The position numbers were made by a program, and so were the translations under genes. A stretch of DNA of 64,000 bases from Dictyostelium discoideum (lineage: Eukaryota), in the NCBI GenBank assembly GCA_000004695.1, contig CM000154.2:3264001-3328000 (forward strand), given 5' to 3'. Shown in pieces: positions 11,554 through 57,401 of this stretch. The notes beneath the pieces were generated by a model. That model searched no databases and was not told the origin of the DNA. It saw nothing but the letters and a program-made list of their open reading frames with translations. Within the stretch, counting starts at the first letter, position 1. Every line of letters begins with the position of its first letter.

Positions 11554-13147
11554 CTATTTAATTATTTTTACATTTTTTGAAACATAAGGTTCAATTTGAT
11601 GTTTAAAACTTGTGAAAACTTTTACTTCCTTTACAGTATTAGGAATTGAACCAATTATTAATTCTTGTTTAATATCGCCTAAACGCAACGATTCAACACC
11701 ATCTGGTAATATACCTGGTGTTAATTTTTGATTGAATCCATCTTTTAAAGTAACACGAGTTACAGTATTAGGAATTGAACCAATTATTAATTCTTGTTTA
11801 ATATCGCCTAAATACAAGGATTTAACACCATCTGGTAATATACCTGGTGTTAATTTTTGATTGAATCCATCTTTTAAAGAGACAAGAGTTACAGTATTAG
11901 GAATTGAACCAATCATTAATTCTTGTTTAATATCGCCTAAATACAACAATTTAATACTATCTGGTAATATACCTGGTGTTAATTTTTGATTGAATCCATC
12001 CAATAAAGAGACATGAGTTACAGTATTAGGAATTGAACCAATCATTAATTCTTGTTTAATATCACCTAAATACAAGGATTTAACGCCATCTGGTAATATA
12101 CCAGGTGTTAATTTTTGATTGAATCTATCCAAGAGCATTACAGTAGATGGTAATTGATTTTTTAATTTTGATAAAATATTACAATTGTCTTTGAATGCTA
12201 TACCTTCATTCTCCTTAAATTTAAATGAATCATCCTCTATATAAACATAAAACTTTGAACTATCCCCTATATTTGGTAATTAGAATGATGTAAACATAAT
12301 TTATAAAAAAAACTGTATAAAGCTTACATTTAAAAAATTTATTTTTATTTTCATCGATTTCAATTATAAATCTACAATTATCTAAGGTATAAATTGATTT
12401 TAAATTATTTTTAATATCATCAATTATTTGATTATGGAAATGAATGATTTGATTATCGTATTCATTTAATTTATTTGAATTATTGATATTATTATTATTA
12501 TTTAATACTATTAATGATTGTTGATATTGTTTAATAATTTTAATTGTATCTCTATCAATAATAAAATCTTCTCCATTATCATAAATTTGTTGATCATTAA
12601 ATTTTATAATTTCATTTAATTTTTCAATAGTTGTAGTTCTATCATTTTCATTTTCATTATTATTATTAATTATAGTTGAAAGTATTTGATTATCATTATT
12701 GATTGAAGAAGTTATAATTGTATTTATTAATGTATTATTTTCAAAGGTTGTTTCTAATTGTTTTTTAATATCTAATTCTATGATTGAAATGATATCATGA
12801 ATTTTTTTAATTTCTTTTTTTAATGAATTATTATTAATATCAAATTGTGATTGAATTTCATTGTATTTATCATTTGATTCTTGTAATATTGTTTCATTGA
12901 TTTCTATTCTTTCAATTACTTTTTGGTATATATCATTTTTAAAATTATTCATTAATGAAAGAATATTTGAAGTTGATTCTAATGGATCAGTTTTATGACC
13001 ATGATGTTCACCTTTACTTGATGTACATTGAATACAACATGGTATTAATTTACAATCTAAACAAAAGAATACTATATCTTTATTTGGGTGAAGTGTACAC
13101 TTTTTATTATTATCAATATTATTTATTTTATTATGATTTGAAATCAT
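11554..13147 (-). CDS. B-box zinc finger + coiled coil + FNIP-repeat protein (cluster copy 1), about 510 aa: complement(join(11554..12266,12328..13147))
   Basis: The B-box motif is [36 protein letters not shown]. Splice AAAT|GTAAGC...CCAAATATAG|GG runs in phase 1 and creates Trp, joining the B-box exon to ...WDSSKFYVYIEDD...MLLDRFNQKLTPGILPDG. The second exon has about 7 FNIP repeats (FNQKLTPGILPxxVKxLxLGDIKQELIIGSIPNTVT). The start is probably the M of MISNHNK (13147); the longer ORF-track start reads through promoter poly-T. Confidence 0.8.
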
Positions 13148-15392: not shown

Positions 15393-15434
<42 letters not shown>

Positions 15435-16290
15435 GTTATTGTTATTAGTACAATTATAGCTTTCATTTATTAAAATTTCGGATTTAGAATTTAATATCTC
15501 TTCATTTCTGCTGTTGTTATTATTATTGTCACAACTATTATTATTATTACTATTATTATAGGTTTCATTATTCTCTTCTACAGCAACTGCTTCTTCTAAT
15601 GTTAAATCCATCATGAAAGGAAACGAATTCTCTCTACTTATATTGCAAGTATTATTATTACTACTGCTGTCACTATTATTATTATTATTATTGTTTTTAT
15701 TATTATTATTATTATTATTATTGTTATTATTATTATTATTATTATTACTGCTGTTACTACTACTACCACTACTATCGTTTTCGACAGATTTTTTAGGGGA
15801 TTGTGAACAAGGTGTATTTGAAGGCTTTATTGAAGAAATTAATTGTTCTGTTGTTGAGGATGGTGGTGTGCTAGAGGTAATTACCATTTTAATGGATTTG
15901 TTTTTTAATGAGGTGAAAGTAATTGAGCGTATTCCTAGTGTGTGTCTTTTTTTTTTTTTTTTTTTTTTTTTTGGTTTTTTTTTTTTTTTAATTTATTTAT
16001 TATTTTTTTATTTTATTTTTTCTATTTTTTTTTTATATTTTTTATTTAAATTTTTTTTTTTTTTTTTTTTTTTTATTTTGGTTTTTTTTGAGTTAAACTT
16101 AATAAAAAAAAAAAAAATAAAAAAAAAATAAAAAATAAAAATTAAAAAAAAAAAAAAAAAAAAAATAAAATAAAATAAAAAAAAAATAAAGATTAACCTA
16201 AAAAAAGAAATGATTATTTAAATATCCCTCTTTTTTTTTTTAAGATTTAATTTTATATGTATTCAATATTTTTTATTTTAAAATTTAAAT
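14441..16290 (-). pseudogene. Segmental duplicate of the myotubularin 5' region (part of exon 2 with a ~160-bp deletion, intron 1, complete exon 1 15042..15887, promoter), fused to FNIP sequence
   Basis: ORF 15027..15887 is 100% identical to 10098..10958. Positions 14455-14640 match 8561-8760 apart from poly-AAT length. The internal deletion is at 14660 ('gtgataaa|atataactgg'). The copy contains none of the catalytic exons. Confidence 0.65.
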
Positions 16291-16630: not shown

Positions 16631-18518
16631 TTATTTTTCTGAATTCTTTTTAATTATTTTTACATTTTTTGAAACATAAGGTTCAATTTGATGTTTAAAA
16701 CTTGTGGAAACATTTACTTCCTTTACAGTATTAGGAATTGAACCAATTATTAATTCTTGTTTAATATCGCCTAAATTCAACGATTCAAAACCATCTGGTA
16801 ATATACCTGGTGTTAATTTTTGATTGAATCCATCTTCTAAAGTGACACGAGTTACAGTATTAGGAATTGAACCAATTATTAATTCTTGTTTAATATCACC
16901 TAAATCCAACGATTCAACACTATCTGGTAGAATACCTGGTGTTAATTTTTGATTGAATCCATCTTCTAAAGAGACATTCTTTACAGTATTAGGAATTGAA
17001 CCAATCATTAATTCTTGTTTAATATCACCTAAATCCAACGATTCAACACCTTCTGGTAGAATATCTGGTGTTAATATTTGATTGAATCCATCTTCTAAAG
17101 AGACAAGAGTTACAGTATTAGGAATTGAACCAATCATTAATTCTTGTTTAATATCACCTAAATACAACCATTTAACACTATCTGGTAATATACCTGGTGT
17201 TAATTTTTGATTGAATCCATCTTTTAAAGAGACAAGAGTTACAGTATTAGGAATTGATCCAATAATTAATTCTTGTTTAATATCACCAAAAAACAACCAT
17301 TCTACGCCATTTGGTAAAATACCTGGTGTCAATTTTTGATTGAATCCATCCAATAAAGAGACACGAGTTACAGTATTAGGAATTGAACCAATTATTAATT
17401 CTTGTTTAATATCACCTAAATACAAGGATTTAACGCCATCTGGTAATATACCAGGTGTTAATTTTTGATTGAATCCATCCAATAGCATTACATTTGATGG
17501 TAATTGATTTTTTAATTTTGATAAAATATTACAATTGTTTTTGAATGCTGTACCTTCATTCTCCTTAAATTTAAATGAATCACCCTCTATATAAACATAA
17601 AACTTTAAATTATCCCCTATATTTGGTTATTAGAATGATGTAAACATAATTTATAAAAAAAACTGTATAAAGCTTACATTCAAAAAATTCATTATTATTT
17701 TCATCGATTTCAATTTTAAATCTACAATTATCTAAGGTATAAATTGATTTTAAATTATTTTTAATATCATCAATTATTTGATTATGGAAATGAATGATTT
17801 GATTATCATATTCATTTAATTTATTTGAATTATCGATATTATTATTATTATTTAATACTATTAATGATTGTTGATATTGTTTAATAATTTTAATTGTATC
17901 TCTATCAATAATAAAATCTTCTCCATTATCATAAATTTGTTGATCATTAAATTTTATAATTTCATTTAATTTTTCAATGGTTGTAATTCTATCATTTTCA
18001 TTTTCATTTTCATTTTCATTTTTATTATTTTTATTATTAATTATAGTTGAAAGTATTTGATTATCATTATTGATTGAAGAAGTTATAATTGTATTTATTA
18101 ATGTATTATTTTCAAAGGTTTTTTCTAATTGTCTTTTAATATCTAATTCTATGATTGAAATGATGTCATGAATTTTTTTAATTTCTTTTCTTAATGAATT
18201 ATTATTATTATCAAATTGTGATTGAATTTCATTGTATTTATCATTTGATTCTTGTAATATTGTTTCATTGATTTCTATTCTTTCAATTACTTTTTGATAT
18301 ATATCATTTTTAAAATTATTCATAAATGAAAGAATATTTGAAGTTGATTCTAATGGATCAGTTTTATGACCATGATGTTCACCTTTACTTGATGTACATT
18401 GAATACAACATGGTATTAATTTACAATCTAAACAAAAGAATACTATATCTTTATTTGGGTGAAGTGTACATTTTATATTATTATCAATATTATTTATTGT
18501 ATTATGATTTGATACCAT
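16631..18518 (-). CDS. B-box + FNIP-repeat protein (cluster copy 3), about 608 aa, about 9 FNIP repeats: complement(join(16631..17616,17678..18518))
   Basis: The architecture and the phase-1 intron (GAAT|GTAAGC...ATATAG|GG) match copy 1. The ORF is intact, but the usual 5' flank is replaced from 18531 by foreign sequence. Confidence 0.8.
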
Positions 18519-19949: not shown

Positions 19950-22900
19950 CTATTTAATTATTTTTACATTTTTTGAAACATAAGGTTCAATTTGATGTTT
20001 AAAACTTGTGGAAACATTTACTTCCTTTACAGTATTAGGAATTGAACCAATTATTAATTCTTGTTTAATATCGCCTAAATTCAACGATTCAACACCATCT
20101 GGTAATATACCTGGTGTTAATTTTTGATTGAATCCATCTTCTAAAGTGACACTCTTTACAGTATTAGGAATTGAACCAATTATTAATTCTTGTTTAATAT
20201 CACCTAAATCCAACGATTCAACACTATCTGGTAGAATACCTGGTGTTAATTTTTGATTAAATCCATCTTCTAAAGAGACATGAGTTACAGTATTAGGAAT
20301 TGAACCAATCATTAATTCTTGTTTAATATCACCTAAATACAACGATTCAACACCTTCTGGTAGAATACCTGGTGTTAATTTTTGATTGAACCTATCTTCT
20401 AACGAGACATTCGTTACAGTATTAGGAATTGAACCAATTATTAATTCTTGTTTAATATCGCCTAAATACAACAATCCAACACTTTCTGGTAATATACGTG
20501 GTGTTAATTTTTGATTGAATCCATCTTTTAAAGAGACACTCGTTACAGTATTAGGAATTGAACCAATTATTAATTCTTGTTTAATATCACCTAAATACAA
20601 CAATCCAACACTTTCTGGTAAAATACCTGGTGTTAATATTTGATTGAATCCATCTTCTAAAGAGACAAGAGTTACAGTATTAGGAATTGAACCAATCATT
20701 AATTCTTGTTTAATATCACCTAAATACAACAATTTAACACTATCTGGTAATATACCTGGTGTTAATTTTTGATTGAATCCATCTTTTAAAGAGACAAGAG
20801 TTACAGTATTAGGAATTGATCCAATAATTAATTCTTGTTTAATATCACCTAAATCCAACAATTTAATACTATCTGGTAATATACCTGGTGTTAATTTTTG
20901 ATTGAATCCATCTTTTAAAGTGACACGAGTTACAGTATTAGGAATTGAACCAATCATTATTTCTTGTTTAATATCACCTAAATACAACCATTCAACACTA
21001 TCTGGTAAAATACCTGGTGTTAATTTTTGATTGAATCTATCCAATAAAGAGATATGAGTTACAGTATTAGGAATTGAACCAATCATTAATTCTTGTTTAA
21101 TATCACCTAAATGCAACAATTTAACACTATCTGGTAATATACATGGTGTTAATTTTTGATTGAATCCATCTTTTAAAGAGACACGAGTTACAGTATTAGG
21201 AATTGAACCAATTATTAATTCTTGTTTAATATCGCCTAAATCCAACAATTTAATACTATCTGGTAATATACCTGGTGTTAATTTTTGATTGAATTCATCT
21301 TTTAAAGATACACGAGTTACAGTATTAGGAATTGAACCAATCATTATTTCTTGATTAATATCACCTAAATACAACCATTCAACACTATCTGGTAATATAC
21401 CTGGTGTTAATTTTTGATTGAATCCATCTTTTAAAGAGACAAGAGTTACAGTATTAGGAATTGAACCAATTATTAATTCTTGTTTAATATCACCTAAATA
21501 CAAGGATTTAACACCATCTGGTAATATACCTGGTGTTAATTTTTGATTGAATCCATCTTTTAAAGAGACATGGATTACAGTATTAGGAATTGAACCAATC
21601 ATTAATTCTTGTTTAATATCACATAAATCCAACAATTTAATACTATCTGGTAATATACCTGGGGTTAATTTTTGATTGAATCTATCCAATAAAGAGATAT
21701 GAGTTACAGTATTAGGAATTGAACCAATTATTAATTCTTGTTTAATATCGCCTAAATCCAACAATTTAATACTATCTGGTAATATACCTGGTGTTAATTT
21801 TTGATTGAATTCATCTTTTAAAGATACATGAGTTACAGTATCAGGAATTGAACCAATTATTAATTCTTGTTTAATATCACCTAAATACAAGGATTTAACA
21901 CAATATGGCAATATACCTGGTGTTAATTTTTGATTGAATCTATCCAATAAAGAGATATGGATTACAGTATTAGGAATTGAACCAATCATTAGTTCTTGTT
22001 TAATATCACCTAAATACAAGGATTTAATACTATCTGGTAATATGCATGGTGTTAATATTTGATTGAATCCATCCAATAAAGAGACATGGATTACAGTATT
22101 AGGAATTGAACCAATTATTAATTCTTGTTTAATATCACCTAAATACAAGGATTCAACGCCATCTGGTAATATACCAGGTGTTAATTTTTGATTGAATCCA
22201 TCCAATAGCATTACAGTTGATGGTAATTGATTTTTTAATTTTGATAAAATATTACAATTGTTTTTGAATGCTGTACCTTCATTCTCCTTAAATTTAAATG
22301 AATTACCCTCTATATAAACATAAAACTTTAAATTATCCCCTATATTTGGTAATTAGAATGATGTAAACATAATTTATAAAAAAAACTGTATAAAACTTAC
22401 ATTTAAAAAATTTATTATTATTTTCATCGATTTCAATTATAAATCTACAATTATTTAAGAAATAAATTGATTTTAAATTATTTTTAATATCATCAATTAT
22501 TTGATTATGGAAATGAATGATTTGATTATCGTTTTCATTTAATTTATTTGAATTATTGATATTATTATTATTATTTAATACTATTAATGATTGTTGATAT
22601 TGTTTAATAATTTTAATTGTATCTCTATCAATAATAAAATCTTCTCCATTATCATAAATTTGTTGATCATTAAATTTTATAATTTCATTTAATTTTTCAA
22701 TAGTTGTAGTTCTATCATTTTCATTTTCATTATTATTATTAATTATAGTTGAAAGTATTTGATTATCATTATTGATTGAAGAAGTTATAATTGTATTTAT
22801 TAATGTATTATTTTCAAAGGTTGTTTCTAATTGTTTTTTAATATCTAATTCTATGATTGAAATGATATCATGAATTTTTTTAATTTCTTTTTTTAATGAA

Positions 22901-23220
22901 TTATTATTAATATCAAATTGTGATTGAATTTCATTGTATTTATCATTTGATTCTTGTAATATTGTTTCATTGATTTCTATTCTTTCAATTACTTTTTGAT
23001 ATATATCATTTTTAAAATTATTCATTAATGAAAGAATATTTGAAGTTGATTCTAAGGGATCAGTTTTATGACCATGATGTTCACCTTTACTTGATGTACA
23101 TTGAATACAACATGGTATTAATTTACAATCTAAACAAAAGAATACTATATCTTTATTTGGGTGAAGTGTACATTTTATATTATTATCAATATTATTTATT
23201 GTATTATGATTTGATACCAT
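19950..23220 (-). CDS. B-box + FNIP-repeat protein (cluster copy 4), about 1,069 aa with about 24 FNIP repeats: complement(join(19950..22339,22401..23220))
   Basis: The B-box exon and the intron (AAAT|GTAAGT...ATATAG|GG, phase 1) are the same as in copies 1 and 3. Exon 2 is a single 2.39-kb open frame of near-identical 96-nt FNIP units. Confidence 0.8.
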
Positions 23221-25311: not shown

Positions 25312-25368
<57 letters not shown>

Positions 25369-25841
25369 GTTGAAAGTATTTGATTATCATTATTGATTGA
25401 AGAAGTTATAATTGTATTTATTAATGTATTATTTTCAAAGGTTGTTTCTAATTGTTTTTGAATATCTAATTCTACGATTGAAATGATATCATGAATTTTT
25501 TTAATTTCTTTTTTTAATGAATTATTATTAATATCAAATTGTGATTGAATTTCATTGTATTTATCATTTGATTGTTTTAATATTGTTTCATTGATTTCTA
25601 TTCTTTTAATTACTTTTTGATGTACATCATCTTTAAAATTATTCATTAATGAAAGAATATTTGAAGTTGATTCTAATGGATCAGTTTTATGATCATGATG
25701 TTCACCTTTACTTGATGTACATTGAATACAACATGGTATTAATTTACAATCTAAACAAAAGAATACTATATCTTTGTTTGGGTGAAGTGTACACTTTTTA
25801 TTACTATCAATATTATTTATTTTGTTATGATTGGGTGCCAT
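23925..25841 (-). pseudogene. Degenerate fifth B-box/FNIP copy: frameshifted FNIP fragments (23940..24209, 24437..24658) and a B-box exon disrupted by a unique ~230-bp insertion and an (AAT)n expansion (25300-25370)
   Basis: The B-box motif is intact at 25700-25800. The coiled-coil part is interrupted at 25090-25320, and a poly-Ile readthrough '[10 protein letters not shown]' replaces the normal sequence. Several FNIP units have indels ('gattgaatca tcttttaaag'). Confidence 0.6.
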
Positions 25842-45103: not shown

Positions 45104-46133
45104 ATGGTTGGTGGATTACCAAATTCATCATTATGGAATATAGAATATGATGATTTAGTATTTAAAGATATAATTGGTAAAGGTAATTTTGGATGTGTGT
45201 ATAGAGGTAATTATTTGGGTGTTGAAGTTGCAATTAAACAAATTCCATCATTCGATGATCCCGATTATTGTAAATATACTGAAAGAGAAGTCAAAGCATT
45301 AAGATATATTAGACACCCATTCGTTGTACACTTTTTTGGAGCATGTAAACATGAAAGTGGATTTTATTTAATCACAGAATTTATAGAGGGACTTGACCTT
45401 AGAAGATACTTGAAATCAGTGCCTAAGCCACCTAAATGGTTGTCTAGAGTTAATATAGCATTGGGTGTTGCAAAAACATTCTTATTCCTTCACTCAAAGA
45501 ATTTACTTCATAGAGATTTAAAATCAAAGAATATTTTATTAGACATATCAAGAAACCAAATTAAACTTTGTGATTTTGGTTTCGCTAGAGTTGGTTCACA
45601 GTATAGTAATGGTAGTGATAGCAGTAGTAGTGAAGATGAAAGTGACTCAGAGTGTGTTAATGGTGCTGCTGGTGGTGGTGGTGATGATGTTTATAAAAAC
45701 AATGGTAATGGTAAACCTGCAAACTATAGACTTAGAAGAATGTCGATTTGTGGTACACCAAGTTTTATGCCACCAGAGATATTGCTTCAACAAAAGTATG
45801 ATTGGAGTGTTGATGTCTTTAGTTTTGGTATACTTTGTACAGAATTAATTACCCTTAAAAGACCTGGTAAAGATTATTGGGTTAGAAGTCAAAATAATGG
45901 TTTCGATATAAACATTGAAGAATTAAATGTAAATATTCCTTCACCAAATGATTGTCCAATTCAATTCTATGATTTAGCTTTAAAATGTTGTTCTTATAAA
46001 CATACAAATAGACCAATGTTTTCAACAATTGTAACTATATTAGAATCAATTAAATTACAATTAGAATTATTTGAAAATCAACAACAACAACAACAATTAC
46101 AACAACAACAACAATTACAACAACAACAACAGC

Positions 46134-46168
<35 letters not shown>

Positions 46169-49120
46169 CTACAATTACAACAACAACAATCGTCAGAATC
46201 ATCTTCATCTTCATCATCTCAACCATTAGTTAATAATAATAATAATAACAGCAATTGTAATAATAATAACTTTAATAATAGTAGTAACAATAATAATAGT
46301 ATAGCTAATAATGATAGTATTAGTAATGTATCTACTACAACAACATCAATACCCACTACAACAACAACAACAACGACAACAACAACAACAACAAACAATA
46401 TAACAGCAATTAATGGTACATCAAATAAATATTTACAACCATTATCAAAGCACCAACAACAACAACAGCGAAATCAAAATTCATCAATTATTGATAACAA
46501 TAGTTTGATTGGCTCATCAAATACTGAATCAATGATTACATCATTTTCAATTTCAACATTTAAAGAAAGAAAAAAACAATCATTAAATAAATTAATTAGA
46601 GCAAATACAATAAATATTTTAATAGGTCAACAACAACAACAACAGCAACAACAACAGCAACAACAGCAACAGCAACAAGATAACCAATCATCATCTCAAA
46701 ATCAATTAATTGAAAGGGAGGGTGTAATTAAACTAGATACAACTAAATACCCAAATGGTTGGAAAGAATTTGGTATTGATAATAGTACAAATAAAATTTG
46801 GATCATTTATCAATCAAATATTATTAAAATGTATGTAATTTATTAATAAATAAATAACATATTAAAATAATATATATATACTAATTTATTATTATTATTT
46901 TATAATTTTAGTGGTAGTAATAATAACAATAATTTAATTGAAATGACATGTGGTACAATTATAAAATTAAAAAAACATTCAATTACATTAAGTATTGTAG
47001 ATTCAAATTTAATAAGTGGTGCAAATATTATAAATGTTAAATCTTATCTTAAAGATTATCCATACGTTAATAAACCAATTAAAGTAAATCAGCAGCAACA
47101 ACAACAACAACAAATTATTACAAATAATTATGAATTAAATTTAATAATTAAATTACAATCACGTATTAGAGGTTGGTTAGTTAGAAGAAGATATAAAATA
47201 TTTTTATCAAATTGGAAATTAAATAATAGTAATACATCACAATCAAATAAAAACCAATGGATTAGATTATTTAATCAATTGATATCAAGTGAATTAGAAT
47301 ATAAAAAACAATTAGATCAAGTGATTAAATCATATTTATTACCTATTCAATCTAAATTTAGAATTAATAAACCATTATTAAATTATAAAGAAATTGGGTC
47401 AATCTTTTCAAATATTGAATCATTATCAGAGATTCATAATGAATTATTAAAGATCGTTAATCAAATTTCAAAATCACCATTTTTCATTATGAATTTTGAA
47501 AATGAAAAAGATGATAGAAGTAATCAAAATAATACCTCGGCCACCACTGATATATTTGGTGATAGTAGTATTCAATTTACAAATATTTCAATTAATACAA
47601 AAGATAGTAGTAATCAAATTAATTCGATCACTCAATTCATTGTAAAGAATATATCACAAATAAAGAATCAATATGGTATATATGCATTTAATTTCAAATA
47701 TTCAACAAATATTTATAATTGGTGTAGATTGAATCCTGATTTCTCAATATTTTGCGATACTATTAGATCACAATTAAATCAACAATTTCCAGATCAAGAG
47801 AATGATTTAGCTTCATTATTAAGTTTACCAATTAATAAAATTCAAAAGTATTTATTGGTATTTGAAAAGTTGGCTCAAATTACACCAATAACTCATTCAG
47901 AATATAAAGATATTAAATCTGCTTTCACTCTAATCAGAGAGACTAGTAACTATATTCAATCACAATTGGAAATGTCTTTTGAACATAGTCATATCATGTC
48001 AATCGATATTATGCTTCAAAAGAAAGATAATCAATCTTTAATGCAAAGTGGTAGATGGTTCATTAGACAAGGTCAATTCACTGAATTATCAAGTAATAAA
48101 CAATATTATCTTTTCCTTTTATCTGATATTTGTTTAATTACAAAACCAATTAAATCAAAATCTTCAAAATATAATAATAATAATAATATAAATACAAATA
48201 ATAATAATAATAATTTAACTTCTAGCGCAACACAAACAAATAGTAATAAAGATCTTTCAACTTCAATCAATCAATCAACATCAAATGCCAATAGTGATAA
48301 TAGTGGTAATAATAATAATAATTTAATTAATTCAAAATATTATTATAGATTAAAAACTATAATAAATTTAAAAGAAGAAGTTTCAATGAGAATTAATCCA
48401 GATATTTCAAATGGTGTTTTATTCATTGGTCCTAATAAAACCTATAAATGGTTATTACCAAATGATGAAGAAGCAAAAGATTGGGTAAATGATTTTGAAA
48501 GAACTACAATTTTAATATATAGAAATAATCCAAATGGTGGTGGTAGTAATAATAATAGTATTGGTGGTGGTGGTGGTGGAAGAGGTGGTAGTGGTAATAA
48601 TAGCAATAATGGTAGTATTGATTTAACGGAAATCAATCAAATTCATCATATAAATAACCAAGCTATACCATTATCTTCTTCAAATAATAATATTACAAAT
48701 AATAATAGTATTAATAACAATATTATTATGAATAATAATAATAATAATAATAAAGATACTGAAGGAAAAGGATTCATAAAAAGATTTAGATTAAGTTTTA
48801 GCGCTGGTACTAGTACCCCTGAAAGAAAAACTAGTTTGGTTAACATGTCTCCTTCAACAACTTCTTCTTTAAATAATATAGATTCAAATTATAATAATAA
48901 TAATAATAATGTTACAAATACACCAATTAAATCTGTAACATCATCACCTTCAATTCACTATACACCAGTAAATGATAATAATCAACAACCTCAACTACCA
49001 TCACAACCCAATGAAGAATTTCAATTTACTGTACCAACTACTCCAAGTGATAAAAAGAAGAAAAGGGGTAGTTTTTCAAGTAAATTAAAAAGATTAAGTA
49101 TAACATTTTCCAAAGATTAA
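45104..49120 (+). CDS. Protein kinase (TKL-like) - IQ motif - DH/PH RhoGEF fusion, about 1,311 aa: join(45104..46830,46912..49120)
   Basis: Kinase motifs are GKGNFGCVYRG, VAIK, HRDLKSKNILLD, DFGFAR and the activation-loop GTPSFMPPE. The intron GTATGT...TTTTAG (46831..46911) is phase 2 and joins ...SNIIK-I-GSNNNN...MTCGTIIK. Downstream are an IQ motif (IKLQSRIRGWLVRRRYKIF), a DH domain (WIRLFNQLISSELEYKKQLDQVIKSYLLPIQ...) and a PH domain (GRWFIRQGQFTEL...YYLFLLSDICLITKP). The architecture matches the Dictyostelium 'kinase and exchange factor for Rac' (kxc) type, but I cannot assign which paralog. Confidence 0.8.
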
Positions 49121-49455
49121 AATAAAAAAATTTTAAAAGTAAATTTTACTTTTTTTCTTTATAGAAAAATCTATCATTTAAATATCAAAAAAAAAAAAAA
49201 AATCTATCACAAAAATCTTTTTAGAAAGATAAAAAAACAAAAAGGTTTGGATAAATTATTTAGTGAGAGGCTTCAAATATAATAAATAAAAAATAAATAT
49301 AAAAAATTAATTTCTGAGTCTGAGGTTGAAGTCACACAATTTTTAATTTTTTTATTTTAATTATTTATTATTTTAAATCAATTTTCAAAAATACTGTTTT
49401 TGAGATTGGCATTTTTTGGTGTTTTGAAGATATTTTTTTCGATAGTTAGTTTTTT

Positions 49456-49499
<44 letters not shown>

Positions 49500-49612
49500 T
49501 TCGCACGTTCACCAATTAAAAAACACAAACCCTAAAAAATGTAATGAGTGAAAGATAACACTCCATTTTGACACCTGTGTTGGTGTTGACTTGAACAAAG
49601 ATCTAAATCATG
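49500..49612 (+). promoter_or_regulatory. Conserved non-AT-rich upstream block shared by the two tandem ricin-B paralogs (core gataacactccattttgacacctgtgttggtgttgacttgaacaaagatctaaa, 49553..49606)
   Basis: The 54-bp core is identical at 53594..53647, each copy sitting 160-210 bp upstream of its ATG. It contains an E-box-like CACCTG, and the flanking sequence is about 85% identical. Confidence 0.4.
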
Positions 49613-49763
49613 GGTTAAAAAAAAAAAAAAAATAATAATAATAGACTTAAAAAAAAAAATATAAATACTTTAAAATTTTTTTTTTTTCATTCCCAAAAAT
49701 AAATTAAATAACTTTTAAAACAAATAATTTAAATAAAAAAATAAAAAAATAAAAAATAAAAAA

Positions 49764-52073
49764 ATGATTAATATTGAAGATATTTCAAAATCTTCAAACC
49801 AAAGTGAAGAAAAACAATTAAAAAGTACAAGTTCAAAACCAAAATACTCATTCGCAGCAAAAAGTTTATTCAAAGGTTCAAATAATATTACACCATATTA
49901 TTTATCAACCAGTAATACATTCCAATGTGTAGCATCTGAGTCAATTCAAACATGGCTTCTTTCAGATGATGGTCATATCTTTACATCCAGTGGTAATTTT
50001 GTTTTAGATGTTTCATCAGGTGGTTATTTTGTTGAATTAGTACAACTTAATTCAAATTCAAAAACTCAAATTTGGACAATTGATACAACAAATAATAAAA
50101 TTCAAAACCAAGGTAATGGTAAATACCTTGATATCGACAATTTGAATATTTGTGTTGCACCTCTAAATGGAAACGCAACTCAACAATGGACAACTTTTAG
50201 AAGAGCACCAATTCCAACTGGTAATTGGGGTTACTTTCAAAGCAAACAAATGGATTCAAATAATAATTATTGGGGTTTAAGTGTATTAAATAATAGTAAA
50301 TCATATAATACTAGTGTAGTAATGAATAAAGTTCAAGCAAAATCAAAAGGTCAAATTTGGCAAATGACAAACGATGGTCACATTTTATCACGTTTGGATG
50401 GTAGTTTGGTATTAGATATTGGTCCATCAATTAATGGTAGTACAACAAACTATTATTTAGATACCAATGTTTACAAAGCAAATGATCTAAAGCAACAATG
50501 GGGTATCAACGAAAATAATCAAATATTCAATCAATATTATCCAAATTTATGTATTGGATTCGTTGGTGAACTTGGAGTTGATTCAACTGTTAATTGTGTA
50601 TTAGCTCAACCAAGTAGTGCTAGTGATATTAATTTCCAATGGATTACAAATCCAACCTATTCATTAAATGAAATTGTTAGTGAAGTACCAGAACCATTTC
50701 CAGCTTACACAAGTGGTGATTTATTAGCATCATATCAATACCTTAGTAATATTGCAACTTCTAATTTTACTGATGATATTAGATCACTTTATACAGGAAT
50801 CAATGTTAGTTTACAATCCTTTTTAAGTATTGTCACCAATGCAACTTGTCCATCATCAATTCATTCGACTGAAGATTTTTCAAATGTTCAAAATCAAATC
50901 AAAACTGAACTCATCTATGCAATCGATGTCCGTTTAGTATTTGAAAACTATTCTGGTTTTTATAGTAAATTATTTAGTCAAGGTAGTTCAAATTTAACAA
51001 ATTTAGCAAATTTAATTAATGTTGATATGTCATCTAATCAAATGGTTAATGCAAATTATACTGATGCAATTACTAGTGTTTTTTATTCACTTATTTCAGA
51101 GATTCCAGTAGGTGGTTCAATAATTGCAAACATTGGTCAATCAGCAGTAGAATGGGGTGAATTAATTTCTCAAAGTAATTATCAAGGTGCATCAACCTAT
51201 CAAGTTGAATTAAGTCAACTCTACTCTCATTTAAATACAAACTATGAAAATGAAATGGCAAATGCTCAAAGTATGAAGGATACCATTTTACAAGATTGGG
51301 GTATGATGAGTAAAACTTATGCATTATGTTTCTTACCAACCAATGATCCATCCTCACTCAATATCAATGGATTAAACTTTGAAAAAATTTCAGATGTTGC
51401 ATCTGTAGCTTACGAAATTGCAATGATTCAAATGTTATTACCAACTACTTATCAAATTTACTTTACACCAGCTGGTTATTGGGTACCTTATTCAGATGGT
51501 GATTTCGCTTATAGTGATAACTCTGGAACCTATATTATGGCCACTATCGAGTATAGTAATTCTTATCCTCCAAAGGAATTGACCGATAAGTTATGGAATA
51601 ATGGGGTTTCAAAACAAGAATTTTTCTGGTCAGCTTATGGTTGGAATTTAGCTACCTCACTCACCTATTACAATATGGCAAACAAGTTTGGTAATATCTA
51701 TAAATTAGCTTTTCCAACAATTAAAAATTTTACAGGAGTACCAATGCAATTTGTAATGACCAATGATGGTGATAATCTTTGTAATTTCCCAGTCAAAACT
51801 CATTTTGCAAAATTTTTTTCTATATATTACAGTTGTGGAGATCTTGGTCATCATTATTTCGACATTGCCGTAAATGATATTAACGATAACAAGGTTGCAA
51901 ATTTCACAGTTGATATTAATTTAGAAGCTATTGAAGGAAGTTATGTTTCAATCAAAACTGGTTCATTAGTTGTTCAGCCAGGTTATGCTGTTGGTAATCC
52001 AATTTGTAATCAAGGTAGTTATTCTCTAATGTTTTCTGCTTCAATTTTAATTCCAATTTATAAATCAGAATAA
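49764..52073 (+). CDS. 769-aa protein with N-terminal ricin-B (QxW)3 lectin repeats; resembles the Dictyostelium calcium-upregulated 'Cup' family
   Basis: Ricin-B signatures are TQIWTID...GKYLDID, QQWTTF and [25 protein letters not shown]...QQWGIN. The single ORF has no signal peptide. The family assignment is from memory of domain architecture and size only. Confidence 0.65.
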
Positions 52074-52289
52074 AAAATAAAATTATCGGAATATAAAAAT
52101 CAATTTATATTCTTTTCAATTATTAAAAATTAAAAATAAAATAAAATAAAATCCTTAATCGACTATAAAAAAAAAAATTGTTGGATGGTGAAAAGAAAAT
52201 GATCCCCAATAATAAACTAGTAGTAAATAGTTGAGTTATTATTTATTATTTATTTTTTATATTTTTTTAAAAAATGATTTCAATGAAAA

Positions 52290-52530
52290 GGAAATTCTAT
52301 GGGTTTGTAAAGTCCCACTGCCATGATGAACATTGAAACCCACAACATTGCATTCTACTAATGAATCATGTTAGCACCAGTATCAATTTTATTGATTATT
52401 TGAAGTGAGTTGTTGAGTTTGGCTAATCATAAACCAGGTACACAAAGTTTATCAGTGAAGGAGACGTTTGGATTGATTGTGTTATTGGTTGGGATAAATC
52501 GAAAAGATTACCTTAGTAGCTGATTGAGGT
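52290..52530 (+). ncRNA. Candidate small-ncRNA locus: non-AT-rich intergenic island with a DUSE-like motif ACCCACAA (52338..52345) and a C-box-like CATGATGA (52322..52329)
   Basis: About 60% A+T inside a desert that is more than 90% A+T, with no ORF over 25 codons. The DUSE consensus (A/T)CCCA(C/T)AA normally sits about 60 nt upstream of Dictyostelium snRNA/snoRNA/class-I RNA starts. Strand and exact ends are not determinable here. Confidence 0.2.
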
Positions 52531-52560
52531 GTTGAACTATTACTACTATATATTATTATT

Positions 52561-52567
52561 GTTGTAG

Positions 52568-52637
<70 letters not shown>
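52561..52637. repeat. (GTT)n microsatellite, about 25 units
   Basis: Direct reading; it sits immediately 3' of the non-AT-rich island between the two ricin-B paralogs. Confidence 0.95.
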
Positions 52638-52639
<2 letters not shown>

Positions 52640-52960
52640 TTAGTAGAGGTGATGAAATGATGACTCAACAATATTTCAAAAAAAGAATTAAATTAACAAA
52701 TAATTGAATATTCAAATTATAAATCTTTATTTGATTGTTTATATTCCAAACACTAAACACTTCAAAAAAGGATTTATAAATTTCAATCAAAAATAATCTG
52801 GTAATTTAATTCTTTTTGAAGTAATGTTGCTTCATCGTTTGAACTAAAATTAATCTAATTATTTGTTATGTAATTATTAAAAATATATATTTTATAAAAA
52901 TATTTTTAATAATTATATAACAAATAATTATACCTAGGATTTGAATTTTTGAATTTTTGG

Positions 52961-52991
<31 letters not shown>

Positions 52992-53338
52992 AATTAAAAA
53001 AAAAAAAGGATTGAAAAGTGTTAAAAAAAAATAATAATAATAAAAAACATAAGTTTAGATATAATATAAAAGTGTTGCAAATCATTTATATTTAATTTTT
53101 TTTAAAAAAAAATAATAAATAAACTATAAATAAATTTTTTTTTTTTTTTTTTTTTTTTTTCAAAAATTTTAGAGAAGGCCATCAAAAATTTAATTTGTAT
53201 TAATCCTTTTCCAAATTAACCAATATTTTAATATAAAAATAAAAAAAAAAAAATCTTTGTGATAATCTAATTATTTTCAAATAAAATATATTAAAATTTT
53301 ATTTTAATTATTTATTATTTTAAATCTATTATCAATAT

Positions 53339-53371
<33 letters not shown>

Positions 53372-53542
53372 GGTGTTTTGAAGATACTTTTATTTTTTTC
53401 AATAATAAGTTTTTTAAATTTTTTTTTCTAAGATACTGTTTTTATTGGCATTTTTTGGTGTTTTGAAGATATTTTTATTTTTTTCGATAATAAGTTTTTT
53501 AAATTTTTTTCTTTTTTTTTTTTTTTTTTTTTATTATAAAAA

Positions 53543-53660
53543 TTCACACTTTAGCCAATTAAAACACAAACCCTAAAAAATGAAACGAGCGAAAGATAAC
53601 ACTCCATTTTGACACCTGTGTTGGTGTTGACTTGAACAAAGATCTAAACCAGGGGTTAAA
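53543..53660 (+). promoter_or_regulatory. Paralogous copy of the conserved upstream block (core 53594..53647), with the adjacent 'ggtgttttgaagata...ttttttaaattttttt' sub-block duplicated in tandem (53395-53520)
   Basis: This comes from the same alignment as 49500..49612. Confidence 0.4.
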
Positions 53661-53806
53661 AAAAAAAATAAAATAAAATAATAGACTTAAAAAAAAAAAT
53701 ATAAATACTTTAAAACTTTTTTTTTTTTTCATTCCCAAAAATAAATTAAATAACTTTTAAAACAAATAATTTAAATAAATAAAATAAAAAAATTAAAAAT
53801 AAAAAA

Positions 53807-56116
53807 ATGATAAATATTAAAGATATTTCAAAATCTTCAAATCAAAGTGAAGAAAAATCATTAAAAGGTACAAGTTCAAAAACAAAATACCCATTCGCAG
53901 CAAAAAGTTTATTCAAAGGTTCAAATAATATTACACCATATTATTTATCAACCAGTAATACATTCCAATGTGTAGCATCTGAGTCAATTCAAACATGGCT
54001 TCTTTCAGATGATGGTCATATCTTTACATCCAGTGGTAATTTTGTTTTAGATGTTTCATCAGGTGGTTATTTTGTTGAATTAGTACAACTTAATTCAAAT
54101 TCAAAAACTCAAATTTGGACAATTGATACAACAAATAATAAAATTCAAAACCAAGGTAATGGTAAATACCTTGATATCGACAATTTGAAAATTTGTGTTG
54201 CACCTTTAAATGGAAACGCAACTCAAAAATGGACAACTTTTAGAAGAGCACCAATTCCAACTGGTAATTGGGGTTACTTTCAAAGCAAACAATTGGATTC
54301 CAATAATAATTATTGGGGTTTAAGTGTATTAAATAATAGTAAATCATATAATACTAGTGTAGTAATGAATAAAGTTCAAGCAAAATCAATAGGTCAAATT
54401 TGGCAAATGACAAACGATGGTCACATTTTATCACGTTTGGATGGTAATTTAGTATTAGATATTGGTCCATCAATTAATGGTAGTAAAACAAACTATTATT
54501 TAGATACCAATGTTTACAAAGCAAATGATCTAAAGCAACAATGGGGTATCAACGAAAATAATCAAATATTCAATCAATATTATCCAAATTTATGTATTGG
54601 ATTCGTTGGTGAACTTGGAGTTGATTCAACTGTTAATTGTGTATTAGCTCAACCAAGTAGTGCTAGTGATATTAATTTCCAATGGATTACAAATCCAACC
54701 TATTCATTAAATGAAATTGTTAGTGAAGTACCAGAACCATTTCCAGCTTACACAAGTGGTGATTTATTAGCATCATATCAATACATTAGTAATATTGCAA
54801 CAAATGGTCATACTGATGACATTAGATCACTTTATACAAGTATTAATGTTAGTTTAGAAATTTTCTATGTTAATGTCACCAATGCAACTTGTCCATCATC
54901 AATTCATTCAACTGAAGATTTTTCAAATGTTCAAAATCAAATCAAAAATGAACTCACCTACGCAATCACTGTCCGTTTAGTATTTGAAAACTATTCTGGT
55001 TTTTATAGTAAATTATTTAGTCAAGGTAGTACAAATTTAACAAACTTGGCAAATTTAATTAATGTTGATATGTCATCTGACCAAGTTGTTAATGGAGATT
55101 ACACCGATGCAATTACCAGTGTTTTTTATGCAATTATTTCAGAGATACCAATTGGTGGTTCAATAATTGCAAACATTGGTGAGTCAGCAGTAGAATTTGG
55201 TGAATTATATGCTGAAAGTAATGATTCAGGCCCATCAACCTATCAAGTTACATTAAGTAAACTCTATGATCATTTAAATGAAAATTATGAAAATGAAATG
55301 ACAAATGCTCAAAGTATGAAAAATACCATTTTACAAGATTGGGGTATGATGAGTAAAACCTTTGCATTATGTTTCTTACCAACCAAAAATCCATCCTCAC
55401 TCAATATCAATGGATTAGACTTTCAAAAAATTTCTACCATAGCTTCTTTAGCTTACCAAACTGCAATGATTCAAATGCTATTACCAACTAATTATCAAAT
55501 TTACTTTACACCAGCTGGTTACTATGCACCAGTTTCAAGTGATGATTACTCTTATACTGATAGTACTGGAACCTATATTATGGCCGAAATCGATAACTGT
55601 AACTCTTATCCTCCAAAAGCTTTAACCGATAAGTTATGGAATAATGGAGTTTCAAAACAAGAAGTTTTCACATCTTCCTATGGTTGGAATTTAGCTACCT
55701 CTGTGACCTATTACAATATGGTCGATAAATATAGTGGAATGTTTAAATTATCTTTCCCAACTGTAAAGAATTTTACATCAGTACCAATGCAATTCGTAAT
55801 GACCAATGGAAGTGATAGAGTTGGTACTTTCAATGTTAAAACTCATTTTGCTGGATTAGCCTCAACATATTACTATTCAGGTGCTCTTGGTCATCATTAT
55901 TACGATATTGCTGTAACTGATATTGACGGTAACAAGGTTGCAAATTTCACAGTTGACAATAATTTGGAAGCTCTTGAAGGTAGTTATGTTTCAATCAAAA
56001 CTGGTTCATTAGTTGTTCAACCAGGTTATGTTGTTGGTAATCCAACTTGTAATCAAGGTAGTTTTTCTCAAGGATTTGCTGCTTCAATTTTAATTCCAAT
56101 TTATAAATCAAATTAA
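53807..56116 (+). CDS. Tandem paralog (769 aa, about 85% identical) of the ricin-B lectin / Cup-like protein
   Basis: It is collinear with 49764..52073 over its full length. Differences cluster at residues 330-350 and 440-480 and in the C-terminal 200 aa. Confidence 0.65.
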
Positions 56117-56744
56117 AAAAAATCGATTTTAAAATCATTAAAATTCAAATTTTTAAAAAAAAAAAATAAAAATTAAGTATTTTTTTTTTTTTTATTTTAT
56201 CCACTTGCAAATTAAATATTTTTTCTTAAATTTTTTTTTTATTTATTTATTTAAATTTTTCAATGAATCTCAAAAAAATATATTAATGGGTTGATAAAAC
56301 AAAAATCCAATGTGGTGAATCTGGACGATTCCATTCGACAAAGAGATTAGCACGTTTGTTTTTAAATTTCATTAAATTTTTTTGTTTGCCCAAATAAAAT
56401 AAGAATTAATGTAAAATTTAATAAAAAAAACAATTATATATTTTATTTTATTAAATCACCTTTTCTCAAAACATTGAAATAATTTTCTTAATTTGTTTAA
56501 TTTTTATCTAAAATCTAAATAAAATTTAATATTGATTTTTAGCAAAAAAAATAAGATTTTTTTTTTTTTTTTTTTATTTTTTTTTTTTTTTTTGTATTTT
56601 TTTAAATTTTTTTTTTTTAATTTTTTTAATCAAATTTCTAAATTGTTGAGGTGGGCTAACACTAATTCTTTTTTTTTTTTTTTTTATATTTATTTCACAA
56701 AACAATACATATAAATATATAACATATAAAGATTAAATAATAAA

Positions 56745-57401
56745 ATGCAAACAAATTTATTTAATAAATGGAATAAAATTATTAAAATATCAAAAATTGA
56801 AAATTTTCAAGAAATTAATAATAAATGGTGGAATATAATTAATGAAAGATATAATGAAAAACAAAGATTCTATCATAACTTAACACATATAAATGAATTA
56901 TTAAATCTTGAAGAACAATTCAATTGTAAATTAAAAAAATCAGAAGTTATTCAATGGTCAATTTGGTTTCATGATATAATTTATGATCCAACAAGAAGTG
57001 ATAATGAAGAACTAAGTGCAAAATTATTCATTGATTTTAGTAATGATGTAAAGTTATCAGAACAAGTTATATCAGATGTTAATAAATATATTTTAGCAAC
57101 TGCAAATCATACAAAAGTTAAAAGTGATGAAGAAAAAGATACAGATTTATTATACTTTTTAGATATGGATTTATCAATATTAGGTACAGAAGAATCAGTC
57201 TATAACGCATATAGTGATGCAATTAAAAAAGAGTATTCTCATATACCAGATGATAAATATAGAATTGGTAGATCAAAGATTTTACAATCATTTGTTGATG
57301 CAGGTTATGAATCACTTTATAAAACAAATGAATTTAAAGAAATTTACGGTAAAAAAGCAATTAATAATTTAAAAAATGAAATTAAAAAATTACAACAATA
57401 A
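56745..57401 (+). CDS. 218-aa HD-domain-like (predicted metal-dependent phosphohydrolase) protein
   Basis: YHNLTH....WFHDIIYDP resembles the His...His-Asp metal site of the HD superfamily (COG4339-type). This is a weak assignment from motif memory only. Confidence 0.4.
   Translation: MQTNLFNKWNKIIKISKIENFQEINNKWWNIINERYNEKQRFYHNLTHINELLNLEEQFNCKLKKSEVIQWSIWFHDIIYDPTRSDNEELSAKLFIDFSNDVKLSEQVISDVNKYILATANHTKVKSDEEKDTDLLYFLDMDLSILGTEESVYNAYSDAIKKEYSHIPDDKYRIGRSKILQSFVDAGYESLYKTNEFKEIYGKKAINNLKNEIKKLQQ

Follow-up and report, generated by a model that had tools for sequence, protein, structure and literature searches.

Genes at the locus

The window, by which we mean the whole 64,000-nucleotide stretch of DNA that was analysed, comes from Dictyostelium discoideum strain AX4 and contains two tandem paralogs, cupB and cupF. 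An earlier note had described them as ricin-B/Cup-like genes, and both indeed belong to the Cup family: each encodes a protein of ~770 amino acids with N-terminal ricin-B lectin repeats and is identical to a named Cup protein, and a Pfam search found Ricin_B_lectin (PF00652, E ~1e-16) in both open reading frames. The coding features are as follows.

49764-52073, + strand: cupB coding sequence, 769 aa, two ricin-B repeats (open reading frame; Pfam PF00652; 100% identical to CupB, Q7Z203 / XP_636022)
53807-56116, + strand: cupF coding sequence, 769 aa, chimeric (open reading frame; exact match to CupF, Q7Z1I0 / XP_636023; mosaic analysis)
49849-50741 = 53892-54784, + strand: near-identical cupB/cupF tract of 893 bp with 9 differences; two stretches of 298 bp match exactly

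The coding divergence of about 15% given in the earlier note holds for the proteins (656 of 768 residues identical) but not for the nucleotide sequences, which differ by 9.3%. Identity between the two genes is very uneven, at 98.3% over codons 1-325 and 85.2% over the remainder, and four-fold sites agree at 112/113 (99.1%) and 114/133 positions in these two parts.

Upstream promoter module

A 54-bp block had been reported as perfectly conserved upstream of both genes, and a search of the window confirmed this. The 54-mer occurs exactly twice, both times on the + strand, within a shared exact run of 58 bp (49550-49607 = 53591-53648); no further match with up to 3 mismatches was found in the window, nor any in 100 shuffles. 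Chance alone is far from explaining the repeat itself; given two homologous promoters, the perfection of the block is not beyond chance. The block has a G+C content of 37%. The surrounding intergenic DNA, said to be more than 90% A/T, reaches that level only between the block and the ATG (94%) and overall has 82-86%. A count of GC islands elsewhere in the window was uninformative; small exons could not be masked. The upstream features are as follows.

49406-49430 (cupF copy 53445-53469), + strand: distal TTGGCATTTTTTGGTGTTTTGAAGA block, common to D. discoideum type-A promoters
49508-49616, + strand: full "type-A" upstream module of cupB, 33% GC, with five boxes invariant in four independent lineages
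53551-53657, + strand: type-A module upstream of cupF
49508-49529, + strand: TTCACCAATTAAAAAACACAAA box, outside the 54-bp block
49510-49516, + strand: box CACCAAT, invariant in four independent lineages
49524-49536, + strand: box CACAAACCCTAAA, likewise invariant in the four
49550-49556, + strand: box GAAAGAT, likewise invariant in the four
49566-49573, + strand: box TTTTGACA, likewise invariant in the four
49596-49606, + strand: box CAAAGATCTAA, likewise invariant in the four
49554-49607, + strand: 54-bp block, cupB copy, -135 to -82 from the predicted start
53595-53648, + strand: 54-bp block, cupF copy, exact match to the cupB copy
49660-49687, + strand: cupB core promoter, TATAAATA (49660-49667) and T12 (49676-49687), predicted start near 49689
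53700-53729, + strand: cupF core promoter, TATAAATA (53700-53707) and T13 (53717-53729), predicted start near 53731
53372-53430 and 53457-53515 (span 53372-53515), + strand: tandem duplication of a 59-bp sub-block upstream of cupF, 54/59 identical, period 85

The doubling of an adjacent sub-block in the second copy, also reported earlier, was thus found again, with the two units 85 bp apart; the same duplication lies upstream of cupC.

[quoted passage not shown] Both genes have a TATAAA(A/T)(A/T) sequence with poly-T, and in all 19 cup promoters compared the block position is followed by a TATA box and poly-T. The starts are predicted from sequence by the rule of Chang et al. 2012, according to which transcription begins ~29 bp after the TATA box and ~2 bp after the poly-T ends (PMC3371697). 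By this rule the predicted transcription start is downstream of the block, which falls outside the 5' UTR, in agreement with the promoter location given in the earlier note.

The 54-bp block forms the central part of a larger module of ~110 bp, which is relatively rich in G+C and extends from about -180 to -75 relative to the predicted start. Cup promoters are of two types, A and B, with the block belonging to type A; beyond the TATA region, the TTCACCAATTAAAAAACACAAA box is the only upstream element that is also recognisable in type-B promoters. Persistence across species is limited to short boxes of 7-13 bp within the module. The likeliest contact points would be the boxes that survive between species, namely CACCAAT, (C)AAACCCTAAA, the two AAAGAT repeats and TTTTGACA, and the GT-rich centre of the block is probably dispensable. 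To our knowledge, these particular boxes are not described elements. Inverted repeats inside the block (GAGTG/CACTC and GACACC/GGTGTT) were considered as dimer sites and rejected, as they are not conserved between species. CAAACCCTAAAAAATG and CAAAGATCTAA could serve as motifs for seeking comparable elements upstream of other Ca2+-induced genes, such as patA.

Other cup loci, strains and species

The comparison covered cupB, cupC, cupF, cupG, cupH and a cup pseudogene. A search upstream of other cup-family genes, proposed in the earlier note, gave a positive result: 178-199 bp upstream of the ATG, the block or near-copies of it are present in cupC, cupG, cupH, the pseudogene and, in wild strains, the first gene of the array. 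Every AX4-type cup gene examined has it, and elsewhere in the 309 kb examined there was no match. Diverged copies were found by local alignment, the 54-mer search (up to 3 mismatches) having given none in the first three related loci. D. citrinum, whose ortholog is single-copy, has the module as well, and so do D. cf. discoideum genes; in every case it lies 178-290 bp ahead of the ATG. The block is variable at its centre: cupG has 4 bp inserted there, and cupH and cfY_b have lost 2 bp and 6 bp, respectively. D. dimigraforme lacks most of the block, and the wild-strain array genes g2-g4 lack it entirely.

Window segments 51715-56356, 48605-52138 and 48921-52624 recur as 92-97% copies at the cupC, cupG and cupH loci, respectively, complete with fragments of neighbouring genes. 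Recent segmental duplication of window units accounts for the other block-bearing paralogs. Array copy number is 1, 2 or 4 and differs between strains and species.

Chimeric structure of cupF

The promoter and first ~950 bp of cupF are cupB-like, and its 3' ~1350 bp resemble the downstream array genes g2/g3 of wild strains. In sliding windows, the 3' half is 93-98% identical to W_g2/g3 and the 5' half 95-100% identical to cupB/G/H/W_g1. The nearest relative switches along the gene, at synonymous sites as well, within a short interval.

54718-54802, + strand: chimera breakpoint interval in cupF, with type-A states at 38/42 positions before and type-B states at 133/146 after

Type-A states thus number 38/42 before the breakpoint versus 13/146 after it (Fisher p = 4e-24). 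The cupF gene is a chimera produced by conversion or recombination, which explains the high four-fold-site identity of its 5' coding half. The separate cupC locus carries the same chimeric structure, together with the sub-block duplication.

Identity and constraint

The earlier note took the identity of the block as a sign of purifying selection, a conclusion that the comparison does not support. Homology between the two promoters starts at 49382/53424 and continues into the coding sequence. AT-rich exact runs of 62 bp (10% GC) and 39 bp (about 6-8% GC) flank the block, and AT-poor and AT-rich parts of the promoter are preserved equally well. With the 15 observed differences placed at random in the 269-bp proximal promoter, the probability of an exact run of at least 58 bp is 0.36. 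The block is identical in cupB and cupF because the promoters and 5' gene halves share a recent ancestry.

Across species, the rate at which the module changes is close to the synonymous one. Module identity, set against that of four-fold sites, is 0.84 vs 0.80 in D. citrinum, 0.45 vs 0.73 in D. dimigraforme and 0.47 vs 0.61 in D. firmibasis, a comparison that is conservative in that codon usage may in turn constrain four-fold sites. Since module identity is not above that of four-fold sites, constraint on most module bases is probably weak or absent, and conservation of the module does not significantly exceed the local neutral expectation. Retention of G/C positions was higher in the module than at four-fold G/C sites in cupC (36/36 vs 19/24, p = 0.008) and cfZ_g1 (34/36 vs 17/24, p = 0.017), both values being uncorrected for 10 tests, and no consistent excess was found across the 10 comparisons. 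The module can be aligned at 80-93% in D. citrinum and D. cf. discoideum, amid A/T tracts that cannot, a pattern that homopolymer slippage alone could explain.

Interpretation

We conclude, with a probability of roughly 0.78, that the block is a piece of an ordinary upstream promoter module, passed on through duplication and conversion, and not evidence for a special calcium switch. In this view cupF received the stretch from ~380 bp upstream of the ATG to about codon 320 from a cupB-like gene, either through interlocus gene conversion or through unequal recombination, and segmental duplications then carried the same promoter to cupC, cupG, cupH and the pseudogene. From its position, composition and partial conservation, the module may be a cluster of transcription-factor sites that gives the paralogs common regulation. 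A common expression pattern of cupB, cupG, cupC and cupF has been described in hypoxia transcriptomes (PMC12750705), although co-expression of cup paralogs in RNA-seq could partly reflect cross-mapping between near-identical copies.

The principal alternative is that purifying selection keeps the block invariant as the Ca2+/calcineurin-responsive element of cup genes, whose regulation by Ca2+ and calcineurin is reported in the title of Coukell et al. 2004. Its 37% G+C in DNA of 82-94% A+T, its place upstream of the predicted start and of every AX4-type cup gene examined, the invariance of TTTTGACA and CAAAGATCTAA in four independent lineages and the slightly better retention of G/C positions in two of 10 uncorrected comparisons all speak for such an element. 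Perfect identity, however, is what recent copying would produce; the centre of the block varies (cupG, cupH, cfY_b), D. dimigraforme has lost most of it, and array genes g2-g4 of wild strains do without it. Moreover, the fungal calcineurin-dependent response element (CDRE) bound by Crz1 is 5'-GNGGCKCA-3', with the general core GNGGCK (PMC9604740), and this core had zero matches on either strand in the 420 bp upstream of each of 18 cup genes, so that no Crz1/TacA-type element with a GNGGCK(CA) core was found in these promoters. We therefore regard this explanation as unlikely.

Transcription of the block, whether within a 5' UTR exon or as a small non-coding RNA gene, is highly improbable. The complexity of the block exceeds that of the surrounding DNA, and upstream of it lies AACCCTAAAA, a weak match reminiscent of the Dictyostelium ncRNA upstream element, but a canonical TATAAATA with poly-T follows 53 bp downstream and places the start near 49689, with no plausible intron between block and ATG. 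Scans of 49100-53850 for tRNAs and, up to E = 1, for Rfam families gave nothing, and neither strand of the module folds significantly more stably than shuffles (z-scores -1.4 and -0.5). Near-identical runs of 298 bp in tandem paralogs are prone to assembler error, and two diverged genes partly collapsed or mis-joined would yield an artificial identity; this is scarcely credible here, as identical CupB and CupF proteins are encoded in the independent D. discoideum assembly GCA_054883475.1 (KAM9947898/9) and cupC shows the same chimera and sub-block duplication at a separate locus.

Tentatively, the type-A module (~110 bp) might act as an enhancer for Ca2+/calcineurin (and stress or hypoxia) induction of cupB/C/F/G/H through motifs unrelated to the fungal CDRE, namely a telobox-like AAACCCTAA beside a CCAAT box and paired AAAGAT and TTGA repeats; conversion would then have moved the enhancer onto a type-B gene and rewired its regulation. 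If so, promoter type, and not coding sequence, would be the functional distinction within the family.

These results carry a caution: in families with conversion and segmental duplication, perfect identity of non-coding DNA between paralogs says nothing about constraint. The comparison also leaves five short boxes, instead of 54 bp, as targets for dissecting the cup promoter. The two promoter types, in type-A versus type-B genes and in AX4 versus four-gene wild strains (such as that of assembly GCA_054859355.1, in which g1 is type A and g2-g4 are type B), offer a natural experiment for locating a Dictyostelium calcineurin-responsive element.

Comparison with known systems

Cup promoters show no unusual difference from the standard Dictyostelium Pol II promoter. 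Each has TATAAATA plus T12-13, and the block, ~80-135 bp ahead of the predicted start, stands out as a G/C-containing island. The resemblance to the fungal CDRE system lies in the reported regulation of cup genes by Ca2+ and calcineurin, from which an analogous element is expected somewhere; the difference is that the 18 cup promoters lack GNGGCK.

The TTGA direct repeat TTGAATTGA is presumably a Dictyostelium STAT target motif. Such repeats lie inside the block, as TTGACTTGA in cupB/F/C and as TTGAATTGA in cupG/H and the pseudogene, but D. citrinum, cfY_b, D. dimigraforme and D. firmibasis no longer have them. Papers on STATc, the STATc target study among them, do not name cup genes in their main text; a literature string search for TTGAATTGA returned unrelated primer matches only, and a search on the cup promoter, TacA sites and the STAT motif found little.

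A further parallel is with tandem gene families that undergo interlocus gene conversion or unequal crossing-over, which the sharp switch of affinity within cupF resembles. As in concerted evolution, cupB and cupF share a near-identical tract that includes synonymous sites, and the copy number of the cup array is variable. What differs here is that the exchanged tract carries a whole upstream module, so that the promoter of the recipient gene would have been switched from type B to type A.

Features of the cupB and cupF upstream regions

In this window of Dictyostelium discoideum AX4, the tandem genes that the earlier note took for possible Cup genes are indeed cup genes, as the product of the first open reading frame is 100% identical to CupB and that of the second is CupF. 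Ricin-B lectin repeats are present in both proteins, which share 85% identity. The reported exact 54-bp block upstream of both genes was confirmed, as was the duplication of a sub-block in the second copy. The 54-mer has exactly two copies in the window, with no further match at up to three mismatches, and the exact run common to the two upstream regions extends to 58 bp.

Features of the region (window positions):
49508-49616: relatively G+C-rich module of ~110 bp upstream of cupB, containing the block
49554-49607: block upstream of cupB
49764-52073: cupB open reading frame
53372-53430 and 53457-53515: duplicated sub-block, 54/59 identical
53595-53648: block upstream of cupF
53807-56116: cupF open reading frame

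Every compared cup promoter has the same order of TATAAATA(C), T tract and CATTCC. [quoted passage not shown] 2012, PMC3371697). By this spacing rule, starts are predicted near 49689 for cupB and near 53731 for cupF, which would place the block upstream of the transcribed region, between about -135 and -82. Nothing in the Rfam, tRNA and folding tests pointed to an RNA gene.

Within the cupB-cupF spacer, one stretch (52260-52680) is 31% G+C, lacks an intact open reading frame and includes about 26 (GTT)n repeat units (52560-52640). The corresponding spacer of D. cf. discoideum (L001:8664-9742) has a called minus-strand gene of 115 aa. Elsewhere in the window, minus-strand open reading frames of a tandem paralog family (12363-13138, 17733-18509, 22462-23211 and 25329-25832) have ~76-78% DNA identity to three regions of the cupH locus (L010:6241-6999, 15399-16176 and 21701-22287). 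This family is dispersed and has no relation to cup.

Origin of the identical block

Identity of the block had been read as implying purifying selection, but such selection is not demonstrated, and recent copying explains the identity. Homology between the upstream regions begins at 49382/53424 and is continuous into the coding sequence, and adjoining stretches of 6-10% G+C are likewise free of differences over 62 bp (49676-49737) and 39 bp, so that AT-rich neighbors are equally kept. From the long T tract to the ATG, the promoters have 15 differences in 269 bp; when 15 differences were placed at random, 36% of trials produced an exact run of 58 bp or more. Coding identity is 98-100% as far as ~50741, a tract that includes two exact runs of 298 bp, and ~85% thereafter, while four-fold degenerate sites are identical at 112/113 in codons 1-325 versus 114/133 beyond. 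Inside this homologous stretch the block is not exceptional.

Cup copy number varies at the syntenic locus (L001, L002, L003, L004 and L011 compared with window 45104-57401), with four tandem genes in a wild D. discoideum strain and in a D. cf. discoideum isolate, two in AX4, and one in D. citrinum, D. firmibasis and D. dimigraforme. We compared cupF at 189 sites where the first-gene lineage (cupB and the wild-strain array gene W_g1) differs from the downstream array genes (W_g2 and W_g3), and sliding-window identity was also run. Up to 54718, cupF has the first-gene state at 38/42 sites, and from 54802 the downstream-gene state at 133/146 (Fisher p = 4e-24). Therefore, cupF is a chimera: its promoter and 5' ~950 bp are of the cupB type, and its 3' part is of the g2/g3 type. 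Such a mosaic is characteristic of interlocus gene conversion or unequal recombination, and an event of this kind swapped the promoter type of cupF. Promoters with the module are here called type A; array genes g2-g4 and the D. cf. discoideum gene cfY_a have a different upstream region (type B), in which the G/C blocks are distinct. Apart from the TATA/5'UTR region the types have in common only a TTCACCAAT(N)AAAAAACACAAA box, just upstream of the block. Among the by-products of the analysis, the promoter swap and the existence of two promoter types are of most use. A duplicate of cupF, cupC, is likewise chimeric (promoter and 5' half of cupF: window 53424-54800).

Distribution and conservation of the module

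The block or a near-copy also precedes cupC, cupG, cupH, a cup pseudogene and, in wild strains, the first array gene, at a distance of 178-199 bp from the ATG. The cupC copy is 54/54 identical, and that of cupG differs by a 4-bp insertion and one substitution. Away from cup genes, none of six sub-motifs was found in 309 kb, save one chance match. The association nevertheless weighs little because three of these loci are segmental copies: those of cupC, cupG and cupH match window 51715-56356, 48605-52138 and 48921-52624, respectively, at 92-97% identity and carry fragments of neighboring genes too. In the cupC locus (L008:8116-8479), the last ~360 bp of a 1370-aa gene model that lies upstream of cupC are 92% identical to the cupB 3' end (window 51715-52077), and the model probably fuses a cup fragment brought by segmental duplication. 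Another D. discoideum assembly (GCA_054883475.1, L007:10001-12280) has a cup copy called as a 689-aa product with 29 in-frame stops straight through; this probable pseudogene retains the type-A module.

A recognizable module precedes the single D. citrinum ortholog as well as two D. cf. discoideum genes; in D. dimigraforme and D. firmibasis it can be made out only in part.

Module identity to cupB and four-fold-site identity of the adjacent gene:
D. citrinum: 0.84; 0.80
D. cf. discoideum cfY_b: 0.80; 0.87
D. dimigraforme: 0.45; 0.73
D. firmibasis: 0.47; 0.61

Module identity equals or is under that of four-fold sites, and G/C positions of the module are not consistently better retained in this comparison. 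The A/T tracts around the module do not align between species, a weak argument for constraint on the module, as homopolymer slippage explains this equally well. The GT-rich center of the block is its most variable part.

Boxes invariant in four independent lineages (window positions):
49510-16: CACCAAT
49524-36: CACAAACCCTAAA
49550-56: GAAAGAT
49566-73: TTTTGACA
49596-606: CAAAGATCTAA

The best conserved piece of the module is AAACCCTAA at 49527-49535, present at the equivalent position in 10/11 type-A and 0/7 type-B promoters. This string is also that of the plant telo-box or telomere repeat.

Regulatory interpretation

Of the earlier interpretation, a cup-specific upstream promoter element, with an inferred function, stands; selection is not demonstrated, and recent copying explains the identity. 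Within the block, a TTGA(N)TTGA repeat resembles Dictyostelium STAT sites. It is not conserved beyond D. discoideum and its closest relative, and the STATc target papers examined make no mention of cup genes in their main text. A Ca2+-responsive role had also been proposed as a possibility; the Crz1-type GNGGCK element (PMC9604740), the only sequence-level version of this idea, occurs in 0/18 cup promoters. The module is most likely an ordinary cluster of transcription factor sites of the type-A promoter, which duplication and conversion would have passed on and spread. For a gene family that evolves in concert, the block is an ordinary feature, and the module would explain why cupB, cupG, cupC and cupF are reported to share an expression pattern in hypoxia transcriptomes (PMC12750705).
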